A DNA stretch of 64,000 nt from Promethearchaeota archaeon (GCA_048939015.1 JBHLPW010000003.1:32001-96000), one strand, 5' to 3'; counted from the first letter of the stretch, positions 29,859-48,619 are shown. Numbers and translations: made by a program. Notes: a model not told the origin generated them from the sequence alone.

Positions 29859-29900
29859 ATTTGTTTGCTGTTAATTTGATTTCAGATGCCTATAATTAAT

Positions 29901-30096: not shown

Positions 30097-31830
30097 ATGA
30101 TTAAAATGGTGGCAGAAAAAAAAAAACCGAAAAAAAAAATTCCTAAATTTAAGGAAATTAAAAAACCTATTATCATTGGGGCTATAATTGCCGGTTTTGC
30201 AATAACGGGAATTATAGTTGGTATTATTATATTAGGTGGTTACGATACAGATAAACCACCTAAAATTTTAACTTTTGGTTATCCTGGTTTACCATTTACT
30301 CTTGATCCACTTGAAGTTGCGTATCCTATAGATATAAATATGCTATACCAAGTAGCTGAAGGTCTATTTGATATTGATGAGAACGGAAACATTATTTCTG
30401 GTCTTGCATATATTAATAATCGTACATGGAGCCAAGATGCGCTAAATTTAACTTGCAATCTTAGAAAAGGTGTTAAATTCCATGATGGAACACTTTTTAA
30501 TGCTTCTGCTGTTAAATGGAATTTTGATAGAATTTATTATTTTCTTAATAATTCACTACTTGAATATCCAGATTTATGGATTTTTCCAGATGGAACTCCC
30601 ATTGTTAATGATACTCAAGTGATTGATGATTACACTGTTAAGTTTGTTTTGAACAAAGCTTTTGTACCTTTCGAAAGCTTATTAGCAACTTATAGTTCCT
30701 TTATAATCTCCCCAACTTCTACACAAGAAGATCGATTTCTCAATCTTGGAAATGATAATATCACCGGAACTGGTGCTTTTATCTTTGAGCACTTCGAGCC
30801 TTCAAAAAATATTTCGATGCTGGCAAACCCAATTTATTGGAATGGTAAACCAAAAATCGATAAACTCATATTAATCGAATTAAATACGACAGACTTTACT
30901 ACTGGTGCCCCACTATTGTCTGGAGACGTCGATCTTATGTTTCGGCATTTTGGGTGGGAAGAAGAAGTACTTGAAACATTCAGAAATAATTCCTCGTTTA
31001 TTGTAGAAGCTGGGCCTTTCTCAAATCTTCGATATCTTGTAATGAATAATGAATTGATAAATAAGACAATGAGAAAGGCAATTTCTTACGCTCTGAATTA
31101 TTCTTTTATCGAAACTCTTGGAGGAATTAGGGCAAAATCTCCTATTCCCGAAAGTATTCTGTATTATAATACTACAGGGATAAATGTACCTTTTTATGAT
31201 GTTTCAATAGCACGTCAAACTTTGAAGGATGTTAATTGGAATAATACTGCTGGTGCTTTAACTGCTGATAATAATATTAGTGCAGGTAATGAATGGGAAA
31301 AATTAGTAGATAATGGAACACCCCTCGCAATATATAATTATACATATGTTAAGAATTCTCCCATTTTTCCCCCCTTAAATTTTATCACATTATTAATTGA
31401 AAACCTCAAACAAATTGGAATAAAAGTTGAACCTTATAATATATCCATTACAAAATATAGCGCACAAAGGTTTGAAACAGGAGGATATCATAGAAATATG
31501 TTCGAACTCTGTTGGGGTTGGTGGGCTGCTGATTATAATGATCCATCCACTTTTATTAATCCACTCTTTACTAATGAAACGGTTGCATTTAATACAGGTC
31601 AGGTTAATGATCATCTCACACAAATGTGGATGACTGAAGCTTTATCAGAAACTGATCCAATAGCTCGAAAGGATTTATATTATGATATTCAAAAACATCT
31701 TATTGAAGAAGTATATCCCATTGCGTTTTCTTACTCTACAGTTTTAGCAGCAATTTATGATTCAAATATCAATGGCTGGAGTACCAATTCTTGGAATTGG
31801 CCCTTTAAAAATGTCTGTTTTGATTTATAA
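30097..31830 (+). CDS. family 5 solute-binding protein, membrane-anchored, copy 2
   Basis: LRKGVKFHDGTLFNASAVKWNFDR, GTGAF, RKAISYA, ADYNDPS. Confidence 0.92.
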   Translation: MIKMVAEKKKPKKKIPKFKEIKKPIIIGAIIAGFAITGIIVGIIILGGYDTDKPPKILTFGYPGLPFTLDPLEVAYPIDINMLYQVAEGLFDIDENGNIISGLAYINNRTWSQDALNLTCNLRKGVKFHDGTLFNASAVKWNFDRIYYFLNNSLLEYPDLWIFPDGTPIVNDTQVIDDYTVKFVLNKAFVPFESLLATYSSFIISPTSTQEDRFLNLGNDNITGTGAFIFEHFEPSKNISMLANPIYWNGKPKIDKLILIELNTTDFTTGAPLLSGDVDLMFRHFGWEEEVLETFRNNSSFIVEAGPFSNLRYLVMNNELINKTMRKAISYALNYSFIETLGGIRAKSPIPESILYYNTTGINVPFYDVSIARQTLKDVNWNNTAGALTADNNISAGNEWEKLVDNGTPLAIYNYTYVKNSPIFPPLNFITLLIENLKQIGIKVEPYNISITKYSAQRFETGGYHRNMFELCWGWWAADYNDPSTFINPLFTNETVAFNTGQVNDHLTQMWMTEALSETDPIARKDLYYDIQKHLIEEVYPIAFSYSTVLAAIYDSNINGWSTNSWNWPFKNVCFDL

Positions 31831-31873
31831 AAATTTTAATCCATAGAAAATTCACGTTGAGAAAGAATATAGA

Positions 31874-32851
31874 TTAATAAACATTGTTGGTATTTATTTT
31901 ATATTCAAGTACATAAAAAAAAAGCTCAAAATTATTTTCAGCTGGAAAATCCATTGATATTAATTGAAATCCTTTTGGAAACAATGGATGATTGAGAGGA
32001 TCGTCGAACCCGTCTATTATTTGTCCCCCTGATTCCCAATGAGTCAATGGAAAATTAAACAATGCACCAACTTTAAAAGATTGATCTCTATAAATTAAAT
32101 CATATAAAAATTCAGCGAACACAGAACCAGTTATATTAGCACCCATTTCTATATATTGGTATACTTGTAAATCCATCTTACCGTCTTGAGTAGTAAGATT
32201 CCAGATCACGTTCTGTGTACATTGAATGTTATTTACTATAAATTTCATATCTCCATTATTAGTGCTCCCTGAGATGTTTCCCTGTAGTATGCAATGATTC
32301 AAATCATAAAAAAGGTTGCCATTAGTTGTATTTATTTCTAAATTATTAACAGAGACTCCATAGGGGATATTTAATTCAATATTTCCTTCATTTACAGTAG
32401 TTTTAATCTCAAAAATTATATCAGCTCTAAGAGCAACAACTATTGTAATATTCTGAATTAAAGACAGTACTTCTACTTGGTTAATATCTGATCTAAATTT
32501 CATAGAAAAATTTACTGGAGAATTTATATTCTGCCAATTAATATCAAAAAAATCTGAATAGTCTTTCCCAGCCAGTCCAGGACCTGTCATCTCAAGATTC
32601 ACATATATACTCATATAATTATCAATGGGGGGCTCTACATACTTTATCTCGATATCTCCTTTATCAATATCAATATTTAATCTTTCAATTGAAGAAGGTA
32701 TATCTGGTGTATATTCGAAGGGCAAGTTAGTATAATTAATTTTGCCATAGGATGAGAGATTTACAGAAAGAACACCAATAGGAACTATAATAATTAATCC
32801 GAATCCAAAAATCATCAATAGACCAATTAAAAATGTTCTTTTGTTCGCCAT
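31874..32851 (-). CDS. DUF4097/adhesin-like protein, copy 2
   Basis: Shares VPIGVLSVNLSSYG, GLAGK.YS, MGANITG, DFPA.NN with copies 1 and 3. Confidence 0.65.
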   Translation of the reverse strand: MANKRTFLIGLLMIFGFGLIIIVPIGVLSVNLSSYGKINYTNLPFEYTPDIPSSIERLNIDIDKGDIEIKYVEPPIDNYMSIYVNLEMTGPGLAGKDYSDFFDINWQNINSPVNFSMKFRSDINQVEVLSLIQNITIVVALRADIIFEIKTTVNEGNIELNIPYGVSVNNLEINTTNGNLFYDLNHCILQGNISGSTNNGDMKFIVNNIQCTQNVIWNLTTQDGKMDLQVYQYIEMGANITGSVFAEFLYDLIYRDQSFKVGALFNFPLTHWESGGQIIDGFDDPLNHPLFPKGFQLISMDFPAENNFELFFYVLEYKINTNNVY

Positions 32852-32893
32852 TATGGTTTATTCCCACAATGAATTCATAAACCTTTAATTATT

Positions 32894-32923
32894 TTGATAA
32901 GATTCGTTTGTATTTAAATCAAT
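32894..32923 (-). promoter_or_regulatory. conserved TATA-containing promoter of DUF4097-like gene copy 2
   Basis: Minus strand ATTGATTTAAATACAAACGAATCTTATCAA, matches 29901-29930. Confidence 0.6.
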
Positions 32924-33169
32924 CTTTAACTATTCTATTTGTAGAACAATTAAATATTTTTTATACAGGCTTTCCCTTGTTATCCTTAGTTTGCGTTCAT
33001 TAAAGGTAAGAAAATTTTTACAAATGCTAGAAGTGGGGTATTTCTATCCAATTATCCTAATAGTAAACTTTAATTATAACTTTGACAAATTTATAATATA
33101 TTACGAAAAAGTGAAATCTAATTAAGAATATCAAATCATTAAAATCCATCTATATAAGGGGGACTATTA

Positions 33170-34879
33170 ATGAATGAGAAAAAAATACCTAAAAAGAAGA
33201 GATTTCTTCCTACCCATAAGCCGATTGTTGTTGGAGGATTAGTTGCCATTGTATCACTCGCAGGGATTATCACAGGTGTTGTTTGGTATATTAATAGGCT
33301 AAAACCAGGAGAACAAACACTTATCTGGGGTGTAGGGGAAGCTCCCTTGTGGGAAATTGATCCACTCGAACTTTGGTGGCCAGTACCCCTTGTTGAAAAT
33401 TCTGCTGAAGGATTATTCGCTGTTAATTTAACTAATCCTGAATCAGATATTCTTCCAAATTTAGCATTAGATGGGATATGGAGTCTAGATGGTTTAAACT
33501 TTACTTGTCCACTTAGACAAAAAGTTAAATTTCATGATGATACTCCGTTTAATGCTATTGCAGCCAAATGGAACTTCGACAGAGTCCATAGACTAAGTGA
33601 TGCTTTAACGTATCCAGAATTGTGGAAACTTCCAGATGGTAGATTCATAATAAATGAAACGATTGTTATAGATGACTATACGATAAGGTTTGTGTTAAAC
33701 GCACCCTACGCTCCATTCAAGAATTTATTGTCTGCATGGCCTTCGTATATACTATCCCCTACGTCTACTCCCGATGATGAATTTCTTAACCCTAATACCG
33801 AATTTTTAGTCGGAACTGGTCCTTTTATTTATGACCATCTAGAAGTCAATGTTTCCTTCTCAATGTCTGCCAATCAAGATTATTGGGGTGGTAGACCACA
33901 AATCGATACAATAAATTTCACAGTAATTCCTGAGGAGATGACAGGAATAGAACCATTTTTATTAAAAAAAATTCACCTTGGACGTCTAGTTCTTAATCAA
34001 ACAGAGCTCAAAAAGCTCCAAGATGATCCTTCTTTTAATGTAACAGAACATCTAGTGCCGCGGGTGCGATGGTTAGTACTGAATAATAAATTAATAAATA
34101 CTACGATGAGAAAAGCACTCTCATATGCAGTTAATTGTTCTACTATTAATGAATTTTTTGGTGATACAATATTGGCTAAATCACCCATTCCAGAAAATGT
34201 ATTGTATCATAATATAACAGGGATTAATATACCATATTATAATGTTACGATAGCAAGGCAGATTTTAAAAGACGCTGGATGGCCTGGAACAGAAAATTTG
34301 ACTGCAAATGGAGATGTAAGTCCTGAGAATGAATGGGAAACGGTAGCAAATAGTTCAACACCTCTGGCAACTTACAACTACACAATTTTCGATTTCTGGG
34401 AGGCTGCGGATGTAAATCATACAGGAGCTGTATTGGTCGAAAATTTTAAACAAATTGGGGTTAAGATAGAACTTGTTTCCGTTTCTTATGACATAATGAA
34501 TTGGATGGAATGTGATCTATATGGTTATCATAGAAATATGTATCATATGACTTTTACAGGATGGATAGCAGATATTAACGATCCTTCTAACTTTATTAAT
34601 GCACATTTTACAACCGAGAAGCTTGCCTATTTTGAAAATTATAATTATGGTCAAGTGAATGATACTTTAGTACAACAATGGATGGAAGAAGCTTTAACCC
34701 CAGGAAATAGAAGACAACTATATTATCAAATTCAAAAACATCTTATTGAGGAAGTATATCCCAATATTTGGCTTCATTCCACATCTTATTACGTTGTTAC
34801 GGTATCTAATTTAGAAGGTTATTATCCTAATTGGTTTAGACCTTATTATTGTAGATTTGTCTATTTTAAATCACAATAA
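33170..34879 (+). CDS. family 5 solute-binding protein, membrane-anchored, copy 3
   Basis: LRQKVKFHDDTPFNAIAAKWNFDR, GTGPF, RKALSYA, ADINDPS. Confidence 0.92.
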   Translation: MNEKKIPKKKRFLPTHKPIVVGGLVAIVSLAGIITGVVWYINRLKPGEQTLIWGVGEAPLWEIDPLELWWPVPLVENSAEGLFAVNLTNPESDILPNLALDGIWSLDGLNFTCPLRQKVKFHDDTPFNAIAAKWNFDRVHRLSDALTYPELWKLPDGRFIINETIVIDDYTIRFVLNAPYAPFKNLLSAWPSYILSPTSTPDDEFLNPNTEFLVGTGPFIYDHLEVNVSFSMSANQDYWGGRPQIDTINFTVIPEEMTGIEPFLLKKIHLGRLVLNQTELKKLQDDPSFNVTEHLVPRVRWLVLNNKLINTTMRKALSYAVNCSTINEFFGDTILAKSPIPENVLYHNITGINIPYYNVTIARQILKDAGWPGTENLTANGDVSPENEWETVANSSTPLATYNYTIFDFWEAADVNHTGAVLVENFKQIGVKIELVSVSYDIMNWMECDLYGYHRNMYHMTFTGWIADINDPSNFINAHFTTEKLAYFENYNYGQVNDTLVQQWMEEALTPGNRRQLYYQIQKHLIEEVYPNIWLHSTSYYVVTVSNLEGYYPNWFRPYYCRFVYFKSQ

Positions 34880-34916
34880 TTAGCCTGTTCAGTCAGTAAA
34901 TATTAAATATTTGATA

Positions 34917-35909
34917 TTAAGTGGAATTATTAAAGCTCCATAGGTGTTGTATGTCGATCACTGTTAAATTAAATAACAAATTATAGTTGTTTTTAGCTGG
35001 AAAATCAAAAGATTGATAATAATGACCAGTTTGATTTATGTTATCGATTTTGAATCCTACACTTGGAGGAGGAAAAAGGGGAGCAGGTTCTAAAGGAAAC
35101 CTAAATAAGGCTCCAATATTTGTACTAGCATCTTCATAAGTAAAGCTTAAAATACCTCTATTTTTTATCATGGTGCCTGATACATTTGCCCCCATTTCTC
35201 TATAGTGATATATTTCAAGATCCATATCACCATTTAGTGTAGATAGACTCCATGTACTGTTCTGAGTATATTCCGCATTACGAGAATTTAGAATTAAATC
35301 TCCTGAATTAATAATTCCGGTTATGTTACCGTAAATTATACAGTCATCAAAATCATATTTGATATCCCCGTTTTTTACATTTACTATTAGATTTTTAAAA
35401 GAACCACCCCACGGAACATTTATTTCAACATTTCCTTCGTTTAAAGTTGCGATTATATCGAAAACAATACCTTTTCTAATAGTTACATCTACTTTAATCT
35501 TTTGCGTGAACCATATTGAAGGGTTAAACCATTCATCTGATATAACCTCAAGAGTAAAATTTTTTTGAAGGGAATTATCCTGCCAAGTAATATTAAAATA
35601 ATCTTCATATGATTTCCCTGCTAATTTAGAACCACACATTTTAATATATACCTCTATTTTTACAAAGTAACCAACATCAACGGAGGGGTCGATATAATTT
35701 ATTGTGATGTTTCCTACATCGATTTTAAGATTTAATATTTCTATAGATGGTGTATTTGGATCAGTTTCAAAATTAAGTGGCTCTTGAGTAATATACGTGT
35801 CATAAGTTGACAGATGGCTTGAAATATACAAAATCGGTATAGAACTAATAAGAAGAGTAAAGATGATAACCGTTATACTAATACTCCTTATGATATGTTT
35901 TTTCATCAT
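34917..35909 (-). CDS. DUF4097/adhesin-like protein, copy 3
   Basis: N-terminal TM; LAGKSY, NEGNVEI.VP, NGDI, EMGANVSG, DFPAKNNY. Confidence 0.65.
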   Translation of the reverse strand: MMKKHIIRSISITVIIFTLLISSIPILYISSHLSTYDTYITQEPLNFETDPNTPSIEILNLKIDVGNITINYIDPSVDVGYFVKIEVYIKMCGSKLAGKSYEDYFNITWQDNSLQKNFTLEVISDEWFNPSIWFTQKIKVDVTIRKGIVFDIIATLNEGNVEINVPWGGSFKNLIVNVKNGDIKYDFDDCIIYGNITGIINSGDLILNSRNAEYTQNSTWSLSTLNGDMDLEIYHYREMGANVSGTMIKNRGILSFTYEDASTNIGALFRFPLEPAPLFPPPSVGFKIDNINQTGHYYQSFDFPAKNNYNLLFNLTVIDIQHLWSFNNST

Positions 35910-36202
35910 CTTTAAAACCTTCGACCTAGATTTAGTAACTCTACAATTATTTAGATAAGAGAGTCTTTTATTTAAATTAACGTATCAGATAAAGGATTTA
36001 AAAATCAATTTTCGATAAAATTATTATCTTAATTCAGGATATAAAAAAAACATAATTCTTTTATATTGAAATCGCTTATAAGCTAATTATTATAAGATAA
36101 TCTAAATTCAAATCATAGTACTAGTGATTCCAAACAATTCTCTTAATAACTTTTGATCTATTAGAGCGTTTTTTTTCCACCATCGCCATTTTTGTATTAA
36201 TT

Positions 36203-37243
36203 GTGTGTAGTCTATTTTATATCTCCCGTGGTCGTAAAAGGGATATAATACATGATAAAATGCTAATGTATGGATTTGCCAGTTTTTGGTTTAGTATCGC
36301 ATTAGCAAGAATTTATTTTTTTTTTGCTGATTACTTTTTAGAAGGAACATATAGCGGCGATTTAAGCCAAATTTATCTCACTTTCAACACCATAAATTAC
36401 GTATTGATGTACTTTTATCTTTATTTATACATATTTATACTTGTGAGTGTGGTCTCCTTAAGTATAATTTTCATTTGGTTTTCGATAAGATCAAGTAAGG
36501 AATTCAAAGCGATTTCCTCAATAATGACAATAGGTTATGCAGTATTTTTAGTAGGATGGGTGTTTGAGACTATGGTAATCAAATATGAAAGTTATGTGGC
36601 ACCTTCAATTCCACCTATACTTATGATTATTGGGGCACTTGTAGCAATGTCACCATTGATAATTGATCTTCAATTTTTTGCGAAATCTTTTGTTAACTGG
36701 ATAATAATAGTTTCAATTGCTTTCATATTCCTTGCTTTATGTTTAACCTTATTCACACAATTACCAACACTGATAATAATTCAAATTATTATAATATTTG
36801 CTTCTTTTGTTCTGGTGTTTGCGCTTCTTTATATCTCGATTAATGTCTATAAAGTTTATAAATCTCCAAAGTCTTTAATGGAAGATCAAGAAAAAGAACT
36901 TAGAGATTTTATACGAGCCTTTTCAAAACCTCAAAGGATTACAGAAGAAGAAGTGCAAATGTATAAACAAAAGATGATTTGTCTTGTATGTAAAAGTCAT
37001 ATTTCACGTGTTAACTACGTTTGCCCTGAGTGTAATGCACTTTATTGTATCAAGTGTTCAAATGCGCTGAGTAATTTAGAAAATGCATGTTGGGTGTGTG
37101 ATACACCATTTGATGAGTCTCGACCAATACAACCTCATGAGGTGGTTGAAGAAGCTTTAGGTTTTGAAGAACAGATTATCGCAGAAAGTGAAGTAGGAGA
37201 ACCACATAAAGCTTTAAAAAAGGCAAAAAAAATCAAAAAATAA
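36203..37243 (+). CDS. polytopic membrane protein with C-terminal C4C4 RING-like zinc finger (candidate E3)
   Basis: ~6-7 TM helices, then C-x2-C-x10-C-x2-C-x4-C-x2-C-x10-C-x2-C at 36980-37099; frame is open upstream to 36128, so start uncertain. Confidence 0.75.
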   Translation: MCSLFYISRGRKRDIIHDKMLMYGFASFWFSIALARIYFFFADYFLEGTYSGDLSQIYLTFNTINYVLMYFYLYLYIFILVSVVSLSIIFIWFSIRSSKEFKAISSIMTIGYAVFLVGWVFETMVIKYESYVAPSIPPILMIIGALVAMSPLIIDLQFFAKSFVNWIIIVSIAFIFLALCLTLFTQLPTLIIIQIIIIFASFVLVFALLYISINVYKVYKSPKSLMEDQEKELRDFIRAFSKPQRITEEEVQMYKQKMICLVCKSHISRVNYVCPECNALYCIKCSNALSNLENACWVCDTPFDESRPIQPHEVVEEALGFEEQIIAESEVGEPHKALKKAKKIKK

Positions 37244-37254
37244 AAAAGAAATAT

Positions 37255-37530
37255 GTGAGAAGAAACAAGATGATATTAATGATTTTTTCTGTATTAAGCG
37301 ATTTATATTTTTTGGTTGGGCTATTACTTGTTATTTTTTTGGTAATACCTTATTCTATCTTAATATTTCTAACAATCTGGGTATATAGAGATGCTAAAAG
37401 AAAAGAAATTAATGCTGCCGCATGGGTTTTAATAGTATGGATAATTCCTTTTTTCATTGGGTTCATCCTATATTTATCTATTAGAAATAAATCGATTTCA
37501 AGTACTGTGAGTAGAGAGATACCTGAATAA
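37255..37530 (+). CDS. small membrane protein, PLDc N-terminal-like
   Basis: IWVYRDAKRK....AWVLIVWIIPFFIGFILYL pattern; start may be ATG at 37270. Confidence 0.75.
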   Translation: MRRNKMILMIFSVLSDLYFLVGLLLVIFLVIPYSILIFLTIWVYRDAKRKEINAAAWVLIVWIIPFFIGFILYLSIRNKSISSTVSREIPE

Positions 37531-37622
37531 ATTATGTGAAAAATTAAATTATAAAAAATAAATATTAAAAACAACAAAAACAATATTTACAATATATAAT
37601 AAATTGAAAGGTGCGAAAAAAA

Positions 37623-37880
37623 ATGCGAATCAGTGTGGAAGATAGTCGTACTGGAAAGCTAATTAAATTAGATGTTAAAAATCACCATCAGATTGAAAGA
37701 ATAGTTGATATTATCATAAAGCATATGGGTATTATAAGCGCAGAACAACGTTCGTATACACTTGTCCTCAAAGATCAAGAGTTACCAAATACAATAACTA
37801 TTGAGGATGCCATTCACAAATTCGGATTACAAGAAAATGATAAGTTAATTCTATGGGCTAAAGTTATTGGTGGATTTTAA
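37623..37880 (+). CDS. ubiquitin-like protein (beta-grasp) precursor ending GG-F
   Basis: MRISVEDSRTGKLIKLDV...LVLKDQEL...TIED...GLQENDKLILWAKVIGGF follows the ubiquitin pattern; adjacent to E2/E1/JAB; track start GTG 37611. Confidence 0.85.
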   Translation: MRISVEDSRTGKLIKLDVKNHHQIERIVDIIIKHMGIISAEQRSYTLVLKDQELPNTITIEDAIHKFGLQENDKLILWAKVIGGF

Positions 37881-37906
37881 TTTAATAAATACTTAGTAAA
37901 ATTTGC

Positions 37907-38467
37907 CTAATCATCTATAATTAAAACATCCTCCTCTTCTTCCTCTTTTTCCTCAATCTGTTCTTCAGCAATATTGAGTCCTTCTTTAATCTCACTCATT
38001 GTCTTATTTCTAAATAATTCTGCAGCTTCTAAACATATTGGATAATTAAGAGGATCATCAGGATTTGGATTTTCTACTAAATTTTTAAGTGCTTTAGCTG
38101 TAGTTTCTAAATCAGATAACCGCGACCACTTTTTCAAAACATTAAGACAAATGTATCCTGTACCAGGATTTCCTTGGGGAATTTGAACAGGATGAATGTT
38201 AGGATGAAATATATGCGTTATCCAGGAGAAATCAATTCCGCCGGGATATGGAAATGATCTATTAATTTTCAAGAAAATGCGATGTGATCTTTGTGGTATA
38301 AGTTCTCCTTTATTTTTAATAAGTCCTAAAGCATTTATATTTATTGTGAACTCAACACTAGATTCCCCTTTAAGAACGGTATTTTCTTCCAATACCTTTA
38401 ATTTTTTTATATTTGTGAGTTCATTTTCAATTCTGTCCTTCCAAATTTCATAAGGTAATTCTGGCAA
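37907..38467 (-). CDS. ubiquitin-conjugating enzyme E2
   Basis: RIENEL, FPYP, IFHPNI...GYICLNVL..W, NPNPDDPLN..AA; TTG start preceded by GAGGGG. Confidence 0.93.
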   Translation of the reverse strand: MPELPYEIWKDRIENELTNIKKLKVLEENTVLKGESSVEFTININALGLIKNKGELIPQRSHRIFLKINRSFPYPGGIDFSWITHIFHPNIHPVQIPQGNPGTGYICLNVLKKWSRLSDLETTAKALKNLVENPNPDDPLNYPICLEAAELFRNKTMSEIKEGLNIAEEQIEEKEEEEEDVLIIDD

Positions 38468-38580
38468 TTCTTTTACCCCTCATTAATTTTTTAAAATTAA
38501 ATCATAATTATTATTAATTTTTTTCTTTATTATTTTTTGGATATTTTTAATTTTATTATATTCAACTTTTGTGAGCTTTT

Positions 38581-39462
38581 TCAATCTTTTTTATCATAGG
38601 AGCACGTCCAACATTCAGGATTCTTCAATTTTTCAACAACTCTAAATTTATTTAATAATCCATTATAGTTTAACTGTTTACCAATCAAAGGTTTACCTAT
38701 ATAAGTATCCCATTTACCATGTTCTTTAAAATAATCTAAACCTAAGACAAATTTTAATACTTGTTGTGATTGGAGGCCTCCAATAATTGATGTTGTAGTT
38801 ATAATTGTTGCTACTTTTGCCACAGTTTCACCATTTTCACTCTGAATTTCTTCACCAGTACAAGAAAATTTTTTCCACATTAAATCTAAGTCTGCATTAG
38901 AAATACTACATTGCAAACATGCAGCATCTTTCTCTTCAGAATAAACTGCTTGAACACTACCAAAAAACTCTTCAATCCCAGAATCCACGAAAGGCACTCC
39001 ATAATAATAAGCATAATTATTTGCTTGTAGTCTAGCCTCTACATTATCGAGACACGAACATATAACATCAGATTTTTGATAAAGAGTCTTATCAATATCG
39101 TTTAAATCCTTTTTTATTGCTACAATTTCGCTATCAGGATTTAATTCTTCGCATGCATTTTTCACAACATCTACTTTATATTCTTTATTTTGAGCACTTT
39201 GGTTATTAAATAACACACATCGATTTAAATTTGAAATATTTATAAAATCATAGTCTACTAATATTAATTTACCGACACCAGTTAACACTAAATTTTTCAC
39301 AACTTCATTTCCTGTGGCACCAACCCCGATTATGAGAACTGTAGCGTTAGAAATCTTTTTTTGATCCCAACCCTCAATACGTTTTTGACGATCAAATTTA
39401 TCTGAGTCTATAGATTCAACTCCAAAGACTTCATAATCTGCTTTTTTTTCTTTACTTGGCAT
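38581..39462 (-). CDS. ubiquitin-activating enzyme E1 (ThiF/UBA family)
   Basis: FDRQ, GVGATGNEVVKNL, DYD...SNLNR, LDNVEAR, CLQC and CWTC Zn pairs, putative catalytic FSCT; likely start ATG 39462 (track 39510). Confidence 0.93.
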   Translation of the reverse strand: MPSKEKKADYEVFGVESIDSDKFDRQKRIEGWDQKKISNATVLIIGVGATGNEVVKNLVLTGVGKLILVDYDFINISNLNRCVLFNNQSAQNKEYKVDVVKNACEELNPDSEIVAIKKDLNDIDKTLYQKSDVICSCLDNVEARLQANNYAYYYGVPFVDSGIEEFFGSVQAVYSEEKDAACLQCSISNADLDLMWKKFSCTGEEIQSENGETVAKVATIITTTSIIGGLQSQQVLKFVLGLDYFKEHGKWDTYIGKPLIGKQLNYNGLLNKFRVVEKLKNPECWTCSYDKKD

Positions 39463-39481
39463 ATACTCAATATTTATAAGG

Positions 39482-39985
39482 TTAATTCGAATTAAAGTCC
39501 ACAACTGCATAACTTACTTCTTTATAACCCTTTTCTGAATTTTTATCAAGAGTATAAAATTGGGAATCATCGTCAACTGGATCGACAACTAATGCTACTT
39601 GATATGATTCTGGAAAAAAATATTTCTGAGTTTTTACGTCTGTTTTAGACAAAAAACAACCGAATCCTGGATGTGAGTGCCACCAGCCTACTATTCTTAA
39701 ACTCTCATCCTTTCTTCTTCTTTTTAATCTTTGAAATTTCTTATCATACTTTCCCGCAGCACCCTCTATTTGAGCTGTAGAATATTTATCACTATAAATG
39801 GCACCTAAAAGAAAAAGAAGTTCTTCTATTTTAACATAAAGTTTCTCGTCCCATTTCAATATATTTCCTATTAAATATCCAAAAATTTCATTATGAAAGT
39901 TTTTACATAATATCTTTATCCTATTTAAGACATCTTTTTTAATATATACTGGAAATACAAAATTTTCTTCAAATGTCATTATCAT
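39482..39985 (-). CDS. JAB/MPN+ (JAMM) metalloprotease, Rpn11-like
   Basis: [26 protein letters not shown] (HxH-x7-S-x2-D), ALVVDP. Confidence 0.93.
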
Positions 39986-40902
39986 TAATTTTTCTTAATT
40001 TCTTTTATTGAGCGTATAGAAAAATTCTCACTCTTTTTTAAAATTGAGATTTCTAACATATTTTTTATTATTTGATTAATTTGGTCTCGCGAATTTCCTT
40101 GAATCGCAGAAAACCCAAATGTTTTTAACCCAAAAGACTCATTAATTTTGCTAGGTTCAAATGCAGAGTTAATAGAGTCTTGGAAATTTGCGAGTATATA
40201 AAAATCGATATTTTTAACTCTCTCTTTTAATCTTGAGTATAAATTACTAGTTCGGCTTAAATTACCAGCACCAGAGTTGGTAACTATACAAATTATATTA
40301 ATCTTGGCAATTAAGGGTTTATAATTACTGAAGTTTTCTACTAAATCTACTAAATTTATTTCTCTTATAACAAACTCATTAATTCCTTCTAAGTTAGAAA
40401 TCTTCACTGTTTTTTCTACGATCTCATTCATCTCATCATCAATTTCTAATACAGTTTCTCCAGGAAATAGATTCATAATTGTTGATTTTCCTACACCGTC
40501 CTCACCTGCTAATAAAATCTTGGGTGGGATTATAATATTATTTTCTATAAAATTACCAAAATCTTTAATCTGAGGGCTCTGATCATTTCCTGTTCCCAAT
40601 CCATTCTTAAATCGTTTGAAAAATTCTTCCTTCACCAACTCTAACTTATACATTACTTCATCTTCCGGATCATAATGATCAGTCGTAACTATGAATACAT
40701 AATCTTGTCGACCATAGGTATATACAAAATTAAAATTCTCAAAATTTAATGATCTTATATATCCTCCTTCAATCTTTTTACAAACACGTGTAATAAGAGT
40801 AAGAAAGCTTACGATATCATTATTTATATGATCAGCACCATAAAATGATTTAAAATAGCGGACTACTCCATCCAATGTAATAATATAGATATTCGATATC
40901 AT
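39985..40902 (-). CDS. longin-like domain + atypical small GTPase, copy 1
   Basis: N-terminal longin-like fold; [15 protein letters not shown]-loop; ANFQD (G4), FSAI (G5); stop overlaps JAB start (TAATG). Confidence 0.8.
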
Positions 40903-41030
40903 ACCAGAATTTTAATTTTCTCTTTTTCTTACTTTTGACTTTAACTTTTCTTATTTTTTTAATAAATATATGTAATATAATTACATGAACAATGAAATTG
41001 TATTCTTCTTACTTTTTGATAATTAAATCT

Positions 41031-41927
41031 TTAAATTTGCTTACTTTCTATTTTTTCTATTATTGAAATTTTTATCATTTCACTAATTATTTCAAGTATC
41101 TTTTCTTCAGCTTCCTTTTTAATTGCACAAAAACCATACGTTTGCATACCAAATAATTCTTCTACTTTTTCTGGTTCATATGATGTATTTTCTAGATCTT
41201 GAAAATTAGCTATCACATAATAATCCGCTTTTTTGACTATTTTTTCTAATTGAGAGTAAAATCTTTGAGTTCTACCTAAATTACTTGCACCAGAATTAGT
41301 AACAATGCAAATTATATCGACTGAATCCAATATTGGTCTATAAATTTTAGAATTTTTAATCAATTCCTCCAAATCAAATTCCCGTAATACTATCTCCTTT
41401 ATTCTTTTAAAATTAGATAAGGGGATAGATTTTTGAATAATTTCATTCAAGTCTCCATCAAGTTCTAACACAGTTTCTCCAGGTAATAAATCCATGATGG
41501 TTGTTTTTCCTACCCCCAGTTCGCCTACAAGCAATATTTTGGGCGGGATAAAGATGTGGTTTTCTGCGAATTCATCAAATACTTCGAATCTTCCTGTTTC
41601 ACATTTCCAATTTATTAAATCATCGTGAAATTGTCTAATAAATTCATTTTTCATTAACTCTAGTTTATCTTGCGCTTCCTCTTCAGGATCATCAATCTCT
41701 GTAACAATAATAAACATACATAACTTTTCATCGTCATATGTATATACAAAATTAAAATTTCTGAAATTCAACGATTTTATTTCGCCCCCGCCAATTTCCT
41801 TTGCAATACTACTAATTGCTGTAAGGAATCCGCTTACTAAATCATAATCCATGTCATCGCTTCCCACAAATGTCTTTGAATAACAAAGAACACCATTAGC
41901 CATTATTATGAGTATTTTAGATATCAT
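41031..41927 (-). CDS. longin-like domain + atypical small GTPase, copy 2
   Basis: NGVLCYSK...LVSGFLTAI longin-like; GELGVGKTT; ANFQD; FCAI. Confidence 0.8.
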   Translation of the reverse strand: MISKILIIMANGVLCYSKTFVGSDDMDYDLVSGFLTAISSIAKEIGGGEIKSLNFRNFNFVYTYDDEKLCMFIIVTEIDDPEEEAQDKLELMKNEFIRQFHDDLINWKCETGRFEVFDEFAENHIFIPPKILLVGELGVGKTTIMDLLPGETVLELDGDLNEIIQKSIPLSNFKRIKEIVLREFDLEELIKNSKIYRPILDSVDIICIVTNSGASNLGRTQRFYSQLEKIVKKADYYVIANFQDLENTSYEPEKVEELFGMQTYGFCAIKKEAEEKILEIISEMIKISIIEKIESKQI

Positions 41928-42051
41928 TTTGAATTTCTTATTTTATTCTATTAATAATTAATTTAATAATAGAGTTGAGTATTATTTAAAATAACTGTGC
42001 GGAATTATCATTGTCATTATGAATATCCCTTTTAAAAATCTGTGAAATGAT

Positions 42052-42207
42052 ATGGGTGAAGAAGAAAAGGATTCAAAATCAAATGATCATTATCCAACAA
42101 TAATATCTTACGAAGATCGAGAAATTAAAGAACAAAAACCTCCAAATGATAAAATTATTAGTTATAAAATCGTAGATGAGAAAATAAATTCAGATTCTGA
42201 AGATTAA
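42052..42207 (+). CDS. putative small acidic protein (51 aa), not in ORF track
   Basis: MGEEEKDSKSNDHYPTIISYEDREIKEQKPPNDKIISYKIVDEKINSDSED*; purine-rich codon usage; fills an otherwise empty 310 bp gap. Confidence 0.45.
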   Translation: MGEEEKDSKSNDHYPTIISYEDREIKEQKPPNDKIISYKIVDEKINSDSED

Positions 42208-42236
42208 TTATCAAATCTCATAAGATCTATAGAGAT

Positions 42237-43184
42237 CTAGTCTACGTAAATAATAATATCATCATCTTCTTCCTTTTTAGATTCATCAATAGCTTTTTTG
42301 TTATTATGTTGTTTTTTTAGGATCGTTCTATTTACCATTTCTTCTATAATCTTATAAATTTCATTCCTTGCTTTTTTTGATATTGCTGAAAGCCCATACG
42401 TTTTTACTCTAAAAAATTCTTCCACTTTTTCAGGAACAAGTGCTGTATTAAAATCCTGGAAGTTAGCAATAATATAAAAATCTGCTTTTTTTATCTTTTG
42501 TTCTAACAATGAAAACATCCTATGTGTATTACGTAGATTCATTCCTCCTGAATTTGTTACAAAACAAATAATATCAACAGAATCTAAAAGTTGCCTATAA
42601 TTATTTTGATTATCAACTAGATCTTGTAAGTCCATCTCTCTTATTACAATCTCCTGGATTTCCTCTAGATTTGGTAGTTTAATTGACTTCTCTACGATGT
42701 CATTGGTATCTTCATCAATTTTTATTACCGTTTCTCCAGGAAATAAATTGAAGATGGTCGATTTCCCAGTACCCGGAACACCAACTAATAAAATCTTAGG
42801 AGGTATAAAAATGTGAGTATTAATATATTCATCAAAACTTTCAAACTTTCCAACATCACAATCCCAATTTTTAATTTCCTGTCGATATCTCTTGAAAAAT
42901 TCAAATTTAAGCGATTCTAATTTATATCTTACTTCCTCTTCAGGATCATCAATATTGGTTACTATAATAAAAATCCAATTCTTCTCATAATCAAAGGTGA
43001 ATACAATATTAAAATTTCTAAAATTTAATGATCGTACCTCTCCCCCACCGATCTCGCTCGCTATATTGCTAATTGCTGTGAAAAAGCCACTTATAAAATC
43101 TTCATCAATAGACTCTTCGCTAAAAAATGATTTTGAATAGCATAGAACTCCACTCGCTTTTATTATGAATATTTTTTTTATCAT
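42237..43184 (-). CDS. longin-like domain + atypical small GTPase, copy 3
   Basis: Start MIKKIFII (43184) aligns with paralogs; GVPGTGKST; ANFQD; LSAI; acidic tail EEDDDIIIYVD. Confidence 0.8.
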   Translation of the reverse strand: MIKKIFIIKASGVLCYSKSFFSEESIDEDFISGFFTAISNIASEIGGGEVRSLNFRNFNIVFTFDYEKNWIFIIVTNIDDPEEEVRYKLESLKFEFFKRYRQEIKNWDCDVGKFESFDEYINTHIFIPPKILLVGVPGTGKSTIFNLFPGETVIKIDEDTNDIVEKSIKLPNLEEIQEIVIREMDLQDLVDNQNNYRQLLDSVDIICFVTNSGGMNLRNTHRMFSLLEQKIKKADFYIIANFQDFNTALVPEKVEEFFRVKTYGLSAISKKARNEIYKIIEEMVNRTILKKQHNNKKAIDESKKEEDDDIIIYVD

Positions 43185-43227: not shown

Positions 43228-45111
43228 TTAATATGATTCCTCTATCATCTCAAGGAATATATCAGCTATATTAAGCCATTTATTTTTATGTTCAGGCTCT
43301 AATGTTTCTTTTTTTGTCAATTCTTTCCCTTTTTTGAGATATTTAATAGATTGATCCTTGTTTCCTAAATGTTTATAGCAAATTCCTAATTTTATATAAG
43401 TTTGATTAATATACCATTCTTCAGGACTTAATTCAACTACTTTTTGAAATTGCACTAGTGCTTCATGGTAGTTTTGGTTATACATTAGAATCTCCCCATA
43501 TGTATCTAGATAAGTAGGATTATTTGGAGAGTTCAAAATAAGATTCTCAATGATTTCTAACGATTCATCTTTTTGATCCATATACTGCAACCAGTAAGCT
43601 TTGTACATAAGTAAATCTTTATCATCTGGGTAATCTTGAAGTAATCCTTCTATAATTTCAAATCCCGCTTTAAGTTTGTTTATTCGTTTTAGAATTGATG
43701 CTTTCTTAATTTTGATTTCTCTCCTATTCTCTGGAAATTTGTCAACCATTTCATCTAAATCCCTTGAAGCTTCATTATAACGACCTAAATAAATCAAAAT
43801 TTTAATTTTAGAATAATAATTCTCCATATTCTGTGAATTTTTACTAATTTTCTCATTTATGTTTAAAAGTTCTTGTTCATATTGATTTTCAGATTCTTGA
43901 AATAACTCAGCCATATTTTGCCAAATAATTCCCTCTAATTTATCCCCAATCCCTCTTAATTCAGGCTCTGTTTCAATTTTATATGCTAAATAATTAATAT
44001 AATCAGGTAAAAAATTATACAGGGATTCTTCTAATCCTTTAATAAATAATTTATCTAAGCATTCTTCTAGAATTTTATCAATAATTAACTGTTTATTTAT
44101 TGATTTTGAAAAGAGTCTATTAAAGTAAGTCAACATAGTAACATGTTCTTCTGTTATCGCTCTAAGCATCATTTCAATTTTTTCATTTTCTTGAAAATAA
44201 TAAATCTGGTCTGATGAAACTTTTAATTGAAAAAATTTAATCGGATATAATCCATTTTCTACAATTTGATCAATGTAATAAGTAAGGGTATTCTCTTTAA
44301 TGCCATATTTCTTTGAAAATGTCTCAGGTGATTCATAGTTAGGAAATTCATTAGGGTGATTTACTGAAAGAAATAGTATAATTTTGTTAAAATCATCCTC
44401 ATTTTTTAGCAATGATTCCACTCTGGTATAATCTAATTTTACAATATTGTTTAGAAGCCTAAATTGTAAGAATTCATCCTCAATCTTATTTTTTTTAAAA
44501 AAATCAATAGTCTTGTTAGTGATTTCCTCAACTCGCTTACTTTCTCTTTCTAAAATTGATTGTCTGTCTAAATTGTAATTTTGTAGCATATAGGCATACT
44601 CGACTTTCCCTTTTCTTGTGATTTTATATTCCTTGCTCTCATCATCCTTTTCTACTAAACCTTCTCTTTTTAATTGTTTTAAGTATTTTGATAGTGAGGT
44701 TTGATTGATTGCAACAGGCTCTTCGAGAAAATCAGACCACTTACAGTAGCTATTGTTATAGAGCATCCATAATATCCAATGATCATAATTCCTACCTTTC
44801 TTTAGGATAATATTTGGCGGAAAGTTTACTTTTCTTATTTCTACTGCATTTTGAGACAATTTATTGAATCGAATTATCCCATCTGGGGTAATTTTATAAT
44901 GCCCTATATCAGATTTAACTATTAAACCTTGATTTCTTAGAACTCTTAAATATCTTGACAATGTAGAAGTTGGAATTTTAAGGTTAACAAAATCAGACCA
45001 CTCACTATCATCATTATTACTCAACATCCAGAGAATAATATGCTCATAATTTTTCTTATCCATTGCTGGAGGGTTGAGAATCTCTTGAGGAGGGTAAATT
45101 TTCACTGGCAT
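43228..45111 (-). CDS. double winged-HTH + TPR putative transcriptional regulator, copy 1
   Basis: Two MarR/ArsR-like wHTH repeats (TSTLSRYL...GLI...YKITPDG; QTSLSKYL...GLV...YKITRKG) and C-terminal TPRs (YLDTYGEIL). Confidence 0.8.
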   Translation of the reverse strand: MPVKIYPPQEILNPPAMDKKNYEHIILWMLSNNDDSEWSDFVNLKIPTSTLSRYLRVLRNQGLIVKSDIGHYKITPDGIIRFNKLSQNAVEIRKVNFPPNIILKKGRNYDHWILWMLYNNSYCKWSDFLEEPVAINQTSLSKYLKQLKREGLVEKDDESKEYKITRKGKVEYAYMLQNYNLDRQSILERESKRVEEITNKTIDFFKKNKIEDEFLQFRLLNNIVKLDYTRVESLLKNEDDFNKIILFLSVNHPNEFPNYESPETFSKKYGIKENTLTYYIDQIVENGLYPIKFFQLKVSSDQIYYFQENEKIEMMLRAITEEHVTMLTYFNRLFSKSINKQLIIDKILEECLDKLFIKGLEESLYNFLPDYINYLAYKIETEPELRGIGDKLEGIIWQNMAELFQESENQYEQELLNINEKISKNSQNMENYYSKIKILIYLGRYNEASRDLDEMVDKFPENRREIKIKKASILKRINKLKAGFEIIEGLLQDYPDDKDLLMYKAYWLQYMDQKDESLEIIENLILNSPNNPTYLDTYGEILMYNQNYHEALVQFQKVVELSPEEWYINQTYIKLGICYKHLGNKDQSIKYLKKGKELTKKETLEPEHKNKWLNIADIFLEMIEESY

Positions 45112-45424: not shown

Positions 45425-46762
45425 ATGAATAATAAAAAAACCTTTTTTATGGCATTAATATTGATCTTGTGTTTTAGCTTCCTGACACAAGGATTAACTG
45501 TCTCTAATGAAAAAAATGATATAAACAATAAGAGTACTTTACGTCTTTCGTCTACAAGCAATTCCGTTAAGTTTTCGTGGTATTGTATATGGGATCTTGC
45601 TCAGGAGGGAGGTGAGGGAGTGGCAGTAGATTCGTCAGGGAATATATATCTTGTAGGATGGACATATAACGCCACATTAACTGATATGGTTCTGGTGAAA
45701 TATGACAGTTCTGGGGTACAGCAATGGAATCGCACATGGGGTGGAAGTATTTCTGATGGAGGTGAAGATGTAGCAGTAGATTCTTCTGACAACGTGTATC
45801 TTGCCGGAAAAACAAGTAGTTTCGGAGAAGGAGATTATGACATGGTTCTGGTGAAATACGACAGTTCTGGTGTGCAGCAATGGAATCGCACATGGGGTGG
45901 AAGTATTAGGGATGATGGCTATGGAGTGGCATTTGATTCGTCTGATAACGTGTATCTTGTGGGAAGTACATTTAGTTACGGGGAGGGATATGATGATATA
46001 GTTTTGGTGAAATACAACAGTTCTGGTGTGCAGCAATGGAATCGCACATGGGGCGGAAGTGGTTCTGATGGAGGCAGGGGAGTGGCAGTAGATTCGTCTG
46101 ACAACGTTTATCTTTCGGGAGAAACAAAAAATTTCGGGGAGGGAAATTATGATATGGTTCTGGTGAAGTACGACAGTTCTGGAGTGCAGCAATGGAATCG
46201 CACATGGGGCGGAAGTAGTTCTGATGAAGGCACGGGAGTGGCAGTAGATTCGTCTGACAACTTATATCTTTCTGGATCGACAGAAAGTTTCGGGGAGGGA
46301 AATTATGATATAGTTCTGGTGAAATACGATGGTACTGGAGTGCAGCAATGGAATCGCACATGGGGCGGGATTATTAGGGATGAGTCCTATGGAGTGGCAG
46401 TAGATTCAGCTAACAGAATATATCTTGCGGGACGTACAAATAGTTTCGGGGAGGGATCTGATGATATAGTCTTGGTGAAATACGACAGTTCTGGTATGCA
46501 GCAAGGGGATCAAACATGGGGCGGGGTTAGTGGTGATGGAGGTACGGGAGTGGCAATAGATTCGTCTAACAACGTGTATCTTTCTGGATATACAGAAAGT
46601 TACGGAGGACCAGGTTCATCTATGGCTTTAGTGAAATATGTACAAGAACAAGGAATTTCTAGTTATAACTTATTTCTGTTTATTATTATAATTGGTGCGA
46701 TAACAGTGATAACAGCAATATCCCTTAAAAAAAAATATTATAAGAAATTTCTTCTTGAATAG
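45425..46762 (+). CDS. SBBP-repeat beta-propeller surface protein with signal peptide and C-terminal TM anchor
   Basis: ~7 repeats of GVAVDSSDNVYL.G.T.SFG.G..D.VLVKYDSSG.QQWNRTWGG; C-terminal ISSYN-TM-KKK tail. Confidence 0.88.
   Translation: MNNKKTFFMALILILCFSFLTQGLTVSNEKNDINNKSTLRLSSTSNSVKFSWYCIWDLAQEGGEGVAVDSSGNIYLVGWTYNATLTDMVLVKYDSSGVQQWNRTWGGSISDGGEDVAVDSSDNVYLAGKTSSFGEGDYDMVLVKYDSSGVQQWNRTWGGSIRDDGYGVAFDSSDNVYLVGSTFSYGEGYDDIVLVKYNSSGVQQWNRTWGGSGSDGGRGVAVDSSDNVYLSGETKNFGEGNYDMVLVKYDSSGVQQWNRTWGGSSSDEGTGVAVDSSDNLYLSGSTESFGEGNYDIVLVKYDGTGVQQWNRTWGGIIRDESYGVAVDSANRIYLAGRTNSFGEGSDDIVLVKYDSSGMQQGDQTWGGVSGDGGTGVAIDSSNNVYLSGYTESYGGPGSSMALVKYVQEQGISSYNLFLFIIIIGAITVITAISLKKKYYKKFLLE
45610..46640 (+). 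repeat. intragenic 156-bp tandem repeat (52-aa propeller blades)
   Basis: GCAATGGAATCGCACATGGGG recurs at 156-bp spacing (e.g. 45721, 45877). Confidence 0.85.
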
Positions 46763-48070: not shown

Positions 48071-48619
48071 ATGGGAAATTCTGTAAAAAAATTTAGATTT
48101 AAAATTACTGTCATAGGGGATGGTAGAGTAGGAAAGACATCCCTTATTAAGAAATTCACTTTAGGTACTTTTAAAACAGATTATGTTGAAACAATAGGTG
48201 CTCAATTCTCTAAATATGAAAAAGAAATTCACGGAGATAATATTCGATTACTATTTTGGGACATTGCAGGACAAAGAGAGTTTGATTTTCTTCGGCCTTC
48301 TTTCTACAAGGAAAGTAACGCAGCTGTCATAGTTTATAGTCTTGAACAAAATGAGCTTGGAGATGGAAGCTTTAGACACATAAACGATTGGGATAACGAA
48401 ATTAAGAAATTTTGCGGAGATATCCCGATTGTGGTATTTGCAAACAAAGCTGATTTAATAAATGAGAACGATCTAAATTTATCTAAAATTGAAAAAATTG
48501 TAAGAGAACATAATTTTCTCGGATATTATATTACTTCGGCAAAAACAGGACAAGGTGTTTATAAAGCTTTTGATGATATTATTGAAAATGTATATTATAG
48601 TCTTGTAGAAACTAGTTAG
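48071..48619 (+). CDS. Rab/Ras-like small GTPase
   Basis: GDGRVGKT, TIG, WDIAGQ, NKAD, TSAKTG. Confidence 0.93.
   Translation: MGNSVKKFRFKITVIGDGRVGKTSLIKKFTLGTFKTDYVETIGAQFSKYEKEIHGDNIRLLFWDIAGQREFDFLRPSFYKESNAAVIVYSLEQNELGDGSFRHINDWDNEIKKFCGDIPIVVFANKADLINENDLNLSKIEKIVREHNFLGYYITSAKTGQGVYKAFDDIIENVYYSLVETS

Follow-up and report, generated by a model that had tools for sequence, protein, structure and literature searches.

A predicted second ubiquitin-like conjugation cascade of Lokiarchaeia, inherited with putative longin-pseudo-GTPases and dispersed RING-fold proteins

Organization of the locus

The nine genes predicted at 36128-43184 of a 64,000-nucleotide stretch of a Lokiarchaeia genome, hereafter the window, were confirmed in position and strand. 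On the plus strand, a polytopic membrane protein (36137..37243, stop at 37243; at least five transmembrane segments by hydropathy) carries a carboxyl-terminal C4C4 RING-fold finger (36980..37099) with the spacing C-x2-C-x10-C-x2-C-x4-C-x2-C-x10-C-x2-C. It is followed, in the order originally proposed, by a small two-transmembrane protein (37255..37530; Pfam PLDc_N, E 3e-5), an accessory that accompanies the RING subfamily of the window in part of the family, and by the 85 amino acid ubiquitin-fold modifier Ubl (37623..37880), which aligns to ubiquitin and terminates in GG-F. The frame of the membrane protein is open from 36128, but this position is the codon after a TGA and not a start codon. 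Translation likely begins at ATT 36137; the first standard start is GTG 36203.

The minus strand codes for E2 (37907..38467), a minimal E1 of 293 amino acids (38581..39462), the JAMM/Rpn11-type protease JAB (39482..39985) and three proteins combining a longin with a degenerate small-G domain (longin-G), namely copy 1 (39985..40902), copy 2 (41031..41927) and copy 3 (42237..43184). The clustering of Ubl, E2, E1 and JAMM protease and the common direction of the three longin-G genes, JAB, E1 and E2 are as foreseen, and so is the overlap of the JAB start with the stop of copy 1, where the minus strand reads TAATG at 39983-39987. This overlap is of 1 nt; the gaps are 309 nt between copies 3 and 2, 128 nt between copies 2 and 1, 19 nt between JAB and E1 and 113 nt between E1 and E2, and E2 and Ubl converge 26 nt apart. 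The 309-nt and 128-nt intervals may harbour promoters of their own. A short open frame between copies 2 and 3 has no counterpart in five related loci, and a sigma-70 promoter scan of the locus, a model unsuited to archaea, stayed at chance level. The locus is surrounded by ordinary metabolic and transport genes. The neighbouring wHTH-TPR gene (43228-45111) was rejected as a component since it persists in 4/5 genomes lacking the system.

No ESCRT gene lies in the window, as the original prediction had it: the Snf7 genes are on contigs C10 and C107, and ESCRT genes are absent from the recurrent neighbours listed at related loci. This separation is no mark of novelty because it is usual in Lokiarchaeia; in Lokiarchaeota, Ub and ESCRT genes are reported to occupy separate regions (Hatano 2022, PMC9192718). 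The canonical Ub cluster of the genome, on contig C5, is not beside ESCRT genes either.

The conjugation enzymes

Alignment of about 20 orthologues of each enzyme showed their catalytic residues to be intact. E2 has a UQ_con domain with HPN and Cys107, the adenylation domain and Zn sites of E1 retain the glycine loop, two Zn pairs and catalytic Cys201, and JAB keeps the JAMM metal motif HSH..S..D. The GG is found in 80/80 Lokiarchaeia Ubls, and comparison to the PDB matches the Ubl better to ubiquitin than to SUMO. With a length of about 293 amino acids, every E1 orthologue stops shortly past its final Zn pair; ending four residues beyond this region, the E1 of the locus has no C-terminal ubiquitin-fold domain, the part that would recruit E2. 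In the E1 tree the protein of the locus falls outside the clade of the canonical E1 of the genome and shares a clade with its nearest kin, the E1s of short-E1 operons from Micrarchaeota, Thermoplasmata and Aigarchaeota (SH-aLRT 96). It is single-copy and its split into two families mirrors that of the hosts. The trees comprise archaeal and bacterial-type sequences without eukaryotic ones, and any kinship with the enzymes of Ub, SUMO or NEDD8 is read from profile matches only. This is a predicted second Ubl conjugation cascade, apart from the canonical one, whose cluster lies on a different contig, and the E1 tree bears out the earlier view of a module distinct from the canonical Asgard set.

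Several known systems resemble it. The Ub-E1-E2-srfp-Rpn11 operons of Caldiarchaeum subterraneum and Asgard archaea also combine a pro-Ubl with GG and an extension, E1, HPN-type E2, a RING-type finger and a JAMM protease (Hennell James 2017, PMC5654768). The locus differs from them by an E1 with almost no cysteine domain, by up to 18 dispersed multidomain RINGs and by a longin-pseudo-GTPase as fixed neighbour. [quoted passage not shown] Cluster III of the same study groups E1s without UBL, placed outside Clusters I/II, with E2s akin to bacterial E2-like proteins; the locus E1 is without UBL and nests among E1s of 380-420 amino acids, and E2 matches UQ_con and eukaryotic E2s. The short-E1 operons have a homologous Ubl, an E2 with a C-terminal strand, JAB and sometimes a small finger. 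No longin-G gene was found near any of 32 such outgroup loci, so longin-G is not needed for conjugation. The canonical cluster on contig C5 likewise comprises Ubl, E1, E2, JAB and a membrane RING away from ESCRT genes (Hatano 2022, PMC9192718), but its E1 of 415 amino acids has a C-terminal extension and belongs to another clade, and the cluster occurs also in genomes lacking the second system. Bacterial BilABCD pairs an E1 without UFD with E2, JAMM protease and Ubl; unlike the locus, it has an extra inactive adenylation domain in BilD and serves phage defence without RINGs (10.1101/2023.09.26.559546).

The E2 tail and the Ubl groove

E2 ends in a SIM-like tail, acidic residues with a stretch of four hydrophobic ones, which is present in 118/119 E2 homologues; a similar pattern closes 26 of the 4394 ORFs of the genome. 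The Ubl has the basic residues K19, R26 and K33 on its beta2/alpha1 side, presumably in register with K39/K46 of SUMO1. Position 19 is Lys in 58/58 Ubls from the main locus and sister-family Lokiarchaeia, whose E2 tail is acidic, and Glu/Asp in 26/26 outgroup Ubls, whose E2 tail is mostly basic; the arrangement in the short-E1 operons is the reverse of that in Lokiarchaeia. This swap of charges amounts to a single evolutionary event, and K19 and R26 are gone from many solo Ubls. The tail charge appears to mirror the Ubl groove, and the co-variation suggests that the tail may dock between beta2 and alpha1. SUMO systems also join acidic residues and a four-residue hydrophobic core in SIM binding to a modifier that is basic on the beta2/alpha1 side (PMC12751080); the locus differs in that the motif is on E2 itself and E1 is a single short chain. 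Copy 3 of longin-G closes with the acidic-hydrophobic tail of the E2 type. Such a tail was considered for all longin-G copies and rejected, since it is confined to the copy-3 type and occurs there in five genomes.

The longin-G proteins

The structural model of copy 2 combines a longin topology with an Arf-like G fold. The G2 threonine and the G3 DxxG are absent at the aligned columns in 77/77 G domains, whereas five other related G proteins of the same genome keep both; a canonical paralogue is encoded on contig C34. The P-loop (G1) is retained in 74/77 and is lost in several TPR-fused solo copies, and G4 reads N-F/Y-Q-D/N instead of NKxD in 77/77 G domains of the main family (NFQD in the copies of the locus); one sister-family copy keeps the G4 lysine. 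Because the switch motif G3 and the G2 threonine are missing in all 77, these proteins look like pseudo-GTPases in which the G fold is present and hydrolysis is predicted to be lost. The longin-GTPase signalling that had been proposed is therefore unsupported in its usual sense. Nor does a set of three GTPases characterize the module: the gene is single in 44/73 loci and triplicate in 4/73, and the triplet found here is a local duplication. Many longin-G genes are fused to a TPR-nitrilase domain. It was rejected as a core part, since 3/5 genomes without E1 have it and in 5 genomes with E1 it was not found.

Asgard Rag- and Arf-like GTPases fused to longin or roadblock domains (Liu 2021, 10.1101/2020.10.19.343400; Tran 2024, PMC10933270) share the longin plus small-G architecture and the Arf-like fold. 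The clade of the locus differs by the loss of G2 and G3 and by its operon with JAB and E1, a link that goes unmentioned in the matching passages of either paper. Our literature search yielded no account of E1 and JAB being linked to longin-G, nor of the RING family presented below; an earlier mention of the cluster is possible.

The C4C4 RING family

The model of the C4C4 finger (pLDDT 88) has top fold matches that are nearly all RING/U-box domains, with modest Z scores of 4-5.3; HRD1 and further membrane-E3 RINGs are among them. The finger has an invariant N-x-CW-x-C and is without a linchpin arginine after the last cysteine and without a proline before Cys7. Its spacing matches that of TFIIH p44, a finger that is mainly an interaction module. 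The family has 18 dispersed copies in the genome, 12 of them with membrane segments and six that are fully or nearly soluble and carry TPR or V4R-like domains; its partner domains are polytopic membrane, TPR, V4R-like and extracellular beta-helix. Of 34 loci whose flanks are complete, 27 have a RING-fold protein at most 4.5 kb from E1. The subfamily of the window is absent or truncated at the locus in several close relatives, and related archaeal operons have a small soluble finger of the RING family beside E1 or JAB. Fold matches and co-occurrence with E1 support the original assignment of the membrane finger as RING-like and as belonging with the cascade; this co-occurrence also led us to reject a chance neighbour drawn from a large family. 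The original prediction did not take in the dispersed family, the truncated E1 or the E2 tail. The C4C4 RING proteins are candidate sensor-type E3s and may be the inputs of the cascade.

Linkage and co-occurrence across genomes

The neighbourhood survey established the proposed E1-JAB-longin-G linkage as conserved: in 59 of 73 genomes, from two families, a co-directional longin-G gene lies less than 3 kb upstream of E1, just upstream of JAB-E1. Most genomes without it are cases of contig ends (8 misses). The G-JAB-E1 order is kept even in the sister family, which is GC-rich and has Ubl and E2 relocated, and the genes flanking it vary between genera and families. E1 and the longin-G clade are both present in 70 of 161 genomes, both absent from 86 and discordant in 5. 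Unlinked longin-G copies occur in system-positive genomes and none was found in the 86 negative ones; about 19/21 extra Ubl copies without E1/E2 adjoin a gene of the G clade.

The RING family follows E1 in the same manner (both in 65 of 135 genomes, neither in 59, and 11 discordant, mostly incomplete genomes). When 46 genomes with a completeness of at least 90% were drawn evenly, the family was present in 23/23 with E1 and in 0/23 without. One deletion cannot remove all copies, since they are scattered (18 in the genome). One E1-less genome has three copies of the family, two of them with internal stops. Two controls, the wHTH-TPR neighbour family and the canonical E1, are still present in 4/5 E1-less genomes. 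Two exceptions are a 100%-complete genome with E1 and RINGs where no longin-G gene was found, and a 99%-complete one with Ubl, longin-G and RINGs where no E1 was found. These counts come from kin that are non-independent, and independent losses are bounded only by five genera of mixed presence. The single enzyme set is inherited with the presumed longin-pseudo-GTPase and up to 18 scattered candidate sensor-RINGs, each with a ligase-type zinc finger at its end. The locus-type E1 was found only in two Lokiarchaeia families and not in 239 other Asgard genomes searched; NCBI labels of close homologues as Thor-, Hod- or Hermodarchaeota conflict with this GTDB-based result and were treated as mislabels. 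The system is present in about half of one Asgard group.

A model of the cascade and its alternatives

We favour, with slightly better than even confidence, a lineage-restricted second cascade that serves as a signal relay, in which sensor-RINGs drive Ubl conjugation and the pseudo-GTPase is a dedicated partner. By homology to the Caldiarchaeum system, which has been reconstituted, JAB would trim the pro-Ubl to GG and remove Ubl from targets, the minimal E1 would activate Ubl and E2 would receive it. Because E1 has no ubiquitin-fold domain, the C-terminal strand of E2 may dock SIM-like in the beta2/alpha1 groove of Ubl and help to bring E2 to the charged E1. The dispersed C4C4 RINGs would serve as E3s and inputs, and the longin-G clade would be a dedicated partner of the cascade rather than a GTP switch. 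Within this model the longin-G protein has about even chances of being a substrate, for which the invariant Lys166 of copy 2 is a candidate site; that it serves the RINGs as scaffold or adaptor is less probable, and that it reads the mark is improbable. A tentative reading, which we consider possible but rather doubtful, is ubiquitin-based signal transduction: many sensor-RINGs, both membrane-bound and soluble, would in the manner of histidine kinases feed one E1-E2 pair acting on longin-pseudo-GTPases, with reversible Ubl attachment replacing the lost GTP switch and the co-transcribed JAMM protease as off switch.

The 12 RING proteins with membrane segments, the presence of HRD1 and other membrane-E3 RINGs among the fold matches and the Ubl-binding-like tail of copy 3 would also fit membrane quality control or receptor turnover, where RINGs mark themselves or nearby membrane proteins for removal as in ERAD- or MARCH-like systems and longin-G acts downstream as an adaptor or simply shares their regulation. 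We hold this to be unlikely: the six other RING proteins (TPR, V4R-like) are fully or nearly soluble, the tightest link is G-JAB-E1, which survives the relocation of Ubl and E2, and genes for p97, the proteasome or ESCRT are not among the recurrent neighbours. Active longin-GTPases that cycle between GTP and GDP in membrane trafficking, regulating Ubl conjugation or regulated by it, would account for the retained P-loop (74/77) and G4 aspartate region (77/77), the Arf-like fold and the conserved linkage. The loss of G3 DxxG and G2 Thr in 77/77, when five related G proteins keep both, and the lack of linked trafficking genes make this quite improbable.

The cassette could instead be a mobile defence system of Bil/CBASS type that modifies viral proteins, with the G and RING genes as co-travelling accessories. 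Its patchy presence within genera, the scatter of its relatives over unrelated archaea and the E1 without UFD of Bil (10.1101/2023.09.26.559546) agree with such a role. PADLOC, however, gave no match for Ubl, E2, G or RING, only generic ones for E1 and JAB; E1 is single-copy with a split that mirrors the host families, the neighbours are metabolic or transport genes instead of a defence island, and the RING partners are dispersed and receptor-like, all of which leaves defence very improbable. We give still less credence to neutral synteny, an acquired Ubl operon that landed beside a longin-G gene and never separated from it. Physical linkage alone yields co-loss, and a duplicated locus that loses its middle genes could leave solo Ubl-G pairs, but G-JAB-E1 persists while its flanks change by genus and family, unlinked G copies occur in positive genomes and none was found in 86 negative ones, and the loss of switch motifs in the G clade falls on the same branch.

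Biological significance

Archaeal ubiquitin systems described so far consist of a compact operon whose single RING is a small protein. The system favoured here, one E1-E2-Ubl set with a scattered, domain-shuffled and mostly membrane RING family and a dedicated G clade, has in a prokaryote the funnel layout, few enzymes and many ligases, that is otherwise typical of eukaryotes. This layout apparently arose in parallel, because the E1 type was detected in two Lokiarchaeia families alone and nowhere among the 239 other Asgard genomes searched. The system names candidate substrates, so far lacking, for an Asgard cascade and points to a way in which an E1 that has no ubiquitin-fold domain may recruit its E2; its core parts are all small and amenable to in vitro work. 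It would be a model of the process of ligase expansion and not a direct ancestor of the eukaryotic system.

Gene organization of the locus

The source genome, of 4.86 Mb, belongs to Lokiarchaeia (Promethearchaeota) and carries the window on its contig C32. Every gene of the locus named in the original prediction was found with intact motifs: a polytopic membrane protein with a C-terminal C4C4 finger (~36137-37243, plus strand), a small two-TM protein (37255-37530, plus strand), the Ubl (37623-37880, plus strand) and, on the minus strand, E2 (37907-38467), E1 (38581-39462), JAB (39482-39985) and longin-G copies 1 to 3 (G1, 39985-40902; G2, 41031-41927; G3, 42237-43184). The E2 and Ubl genes are convergent, tail to tail, with 26 nt between them. 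Intergenic gaps on the minus strand are 309 nt (G3-G2), 128 nt (G2-G1), -1 nt (G1-JAB), 19 nt (JAB-E1) and 113 nt (E1-E2), and the claimed TAATG overlap is present, bases 39987-39983 joining the G1 stop to the JAB start. Co-transcription of G1, JAB and E1 is plausible and may extend to the rest of the row. The finger protein gene apparently starts at a non-AUG codon (36123-36139): in ~11 orthologues ATT lies 9 nt beyond a conserved (G)GTGA motif that resembles a ribosome-binding site, and one orthologue has ATG in place of ATT.

Longin-G proteins: degenerate G domains linked to E1

The predicted structure of longin-G copy 2 combines a longin topology with an Arf-like G fold. The P-loop is kept in 74/77 G domains and G4 reads NFQD. 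In place of switch I there is an acidic stretch, together with a lysine (76/77; Lys166 in copy 2). The G3 DxxG and the G2 threonine are absent from 77/77 domains. As an internal control, five related G proteins from this genome retain all motifs, and the longin-G clade is monophyletic relative to them in a tree that carries a long-branch warning. Judging from these sequences, nucleotide binding may persist but a canonical GTP switch is unlikely, and the originally proposed longin-GTPase signalling is not supported in the usual sense.

The proposed E1-JAB-longin-G linkage is conserved in two families. A co-directional G gene lies <3 kb upstream of E1 in 59/73 genomes; the remainder comprises 8 contig ends, 5 true exceptions, two of which still have a G gene ≤2.5 kb from E1, and 1 unchecked case. 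The GC-rich sister family, a second one in Lokiarchaeia, keeps G-JAB-E1 as a block, with Ubl and E2 located elsewhere. E1 and the G clade are both present in 70 genomes, both missing from 86 and discordant in 5. Of 21 additional Ubl copies lacking E1/E2, about 19 also adjoin a G-clade gene, probably reflecting only a few duplication events. The predicted set of three GTPases exists here but is atypical, linked loci having one G gene in 44 cases, two in 11 and three in 4; the window copies belong to one recent subclade in the tree. A close relative has, between copy 2 and a full copy 3, a 95-codon remnant of copy 3 (L026:5651-5938) that retains only the tail-bearing end.

Longin-G also occurs as a fusion with a helical domain plus a nitrilase (L268:1-2631, from contig C125 of the same genome; L033:11978-14620). 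This CN_hydrolase, with an apparent Glu-Lys-Cys triad, resembles the DRT-associated nitrilase, and in many relatives the gene preceding JAB is this fusion. The distribution of the nitrilase does not follow that of the system, and we rejected it as a component.

A dispersed RING family inherited with E1

Profile matches of the C4C4 finger are RNF4, TRIM37 and TFIIH p44, and its structural model matches almost solely RING and U-box domains, at modest Z, which supports its RING-like nature. The finger has no linchpin arginine, so that RING E3 activity can only be inferred. The genome encodes 18 copies of the family: 9 polytopic membrane proteins, 3 with extracellular β-helix domains and a membrane anchor, and 6 soluble or almost soluble proteins bearing TPR or V4R-like domains, one of these domains being assigned from a tandem neighbour. 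In three outgroup loci the family is represented by a small soluble finger. Sister-family genomes have 9-14 copies each, with fingers ending open frames of up to ~2300 aa (L269, L270).

An even draw of 46 genomes ≥90% complete gave the family in 23/23 genomes with the locus E1 and 0/23 without it. Among 135 family genomes, which are kin and not independent, a strict cut-off gave 65 with both, 59 with neither, 6 with RING only and 5 with E1 only; given this kinship, Fisher tests exaggerate the association. Among the six RING-only genomes, completeness is ≤82% in five, and in one a contig end cuts into an E1 fragment; three RING copies, two with stops, were seen in a genome lacking E1. The loss is specific, since the winged-helix-TPR neighbour family and the canonical E1 persist in genomes without the locus E1. 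Decay seems under way in two genomes: in G094 (L159) the Ubl has two stops and a search found no RING or G gene; G087 lacks E1 and contains RING genes interrupted by stops.

E1 truncation and the E2 tail

The locus E1 ends directly past its last zinc pair, with only a short loop beyond the catalytic cysteine, and thus has no domain like that recruiting E2 in canonical E1s. Bacterial BilD, an E1 also devoid of this domain, still binds E2 (10.1101/2023.09.26.559546). E2 terminates in acidic residues plus four hydrophobic residues in 118/119 homologues, an arrangement of SIM pattern (PMC12751080), while the C-terminal strand of outgroup E2s is mostly basic-hydrophobic. All 58 Lokiarchaeia Ubls from main loci and the sister family carry lysine at position 19, and all 26 outgroup Ubls carry an acidic residue there, with a parallel shift at positions 26 and 33. 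This swap fits binding of the tail in the Ubl groove, but it is a single evolutionary switch and cannot serve as a statistical test. In five genomes longin-G copy 3 bears the same tail as E2.

Relation to other cascades

Contig C5 carries another Ubl-E1-E2-JAB-RING cluster and C17 a further E1 and E2; neither has ESCRT genes beside it, these being located on C10 and C107. Separation of Ub and ESCRT genes is the published Lokiarchaeota pattern (PMC9192718), so the missing ESCRT gene at the locus is ordinary. Of the predicted distinct, ESCRT-free module, the separate cascade stands: a 129-sequence tree (quick search, midpoint root, restricted to non-eukaryotes) groups the window E1 with short E1s of Micrarchaeota, Thermoplasmata and Aigarchaeota (SH-aLRT 96) and separates it from those of C5 and C17. 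In those relatives the corresponding Ubl, E2 and JAB genes surround the short E1, and no longin-G gene was found near it. The Lokiarchaeia subtype occurs in 73/161 genomes of the class, in two families, and in 0/239 other Asgard genomes searched.

Short-E1, JAB, Ubl and E2 clusters are widespread in DPANN and Thermoplasmata (L193-L256: Micrarchaeota, Norongarragalinales, Thermoplasmata); we found no description of them in the literature. In Aigarchaeota relatives, Ubl and E2 form a single open frame (L178:8421-9251, L179:8436-9257) whose internal GG would have to be cut by the adjacent JAB. Ubls of this family also head larger proteins of unknown function (L125:7911-9539, L135:2-1297, L130:8556-9068), one with two ubiquitin-like units in tandem.

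Neighbouring genes

Three tandem convergent pairs at 26997-35909 each encode a membrane-anchored substrate-binding-like protein and a membrane-anchored protein of 325-330 aa; such pairs also flank the locus in 22 related loci. Two winged-helix-TPR proteins (43228-45111, 50252-52162) belong to a family with at least 6 full copies in the genome; they are frequent neighbours, yet not tied to the system, and the first was rejected as part of it. Of three small GTPases encoded nearby (48071-48619, 55905-56447, 56551-57144), all with canonical motifs, two are Rab-like and one is MglA-like; Rab-like genes recur close to the locus in relatives. The secreted or membrane-anchored protein at 45425-46762, with near-identical repeats, is probably a β-propeller.

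Proposed function

The gene content, motifs, linkage and joint inheritance observed directly can be read in several ways. A role in membrane quality control is conceivable but rather unlikely. Active GTPase signalling is improbable, the G2 and G3 motifs being lost from the longin-G domains and kept in their five relatives. We give defence still less credit, and neutral synteny, for a linkage conserved in two families, very little.

We lean towards a dedicated conjugation cascade. By analogy with established systems (PMC5654768), JAB would mature the Ubl and the thioester would pass from E1 to E2. The component types are already known; for the linkage to a pseudo-GTPase, the joint inheritance of an expanded RING family and the E2 tail we found no description in the literature searched, whose coverage was incomplete. 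RING proteins would act as E3s and inputs of the cascade, the E2 would dock through its tail, and the pseudo-GTPase would be a dedicated partner, most likely a substrate.
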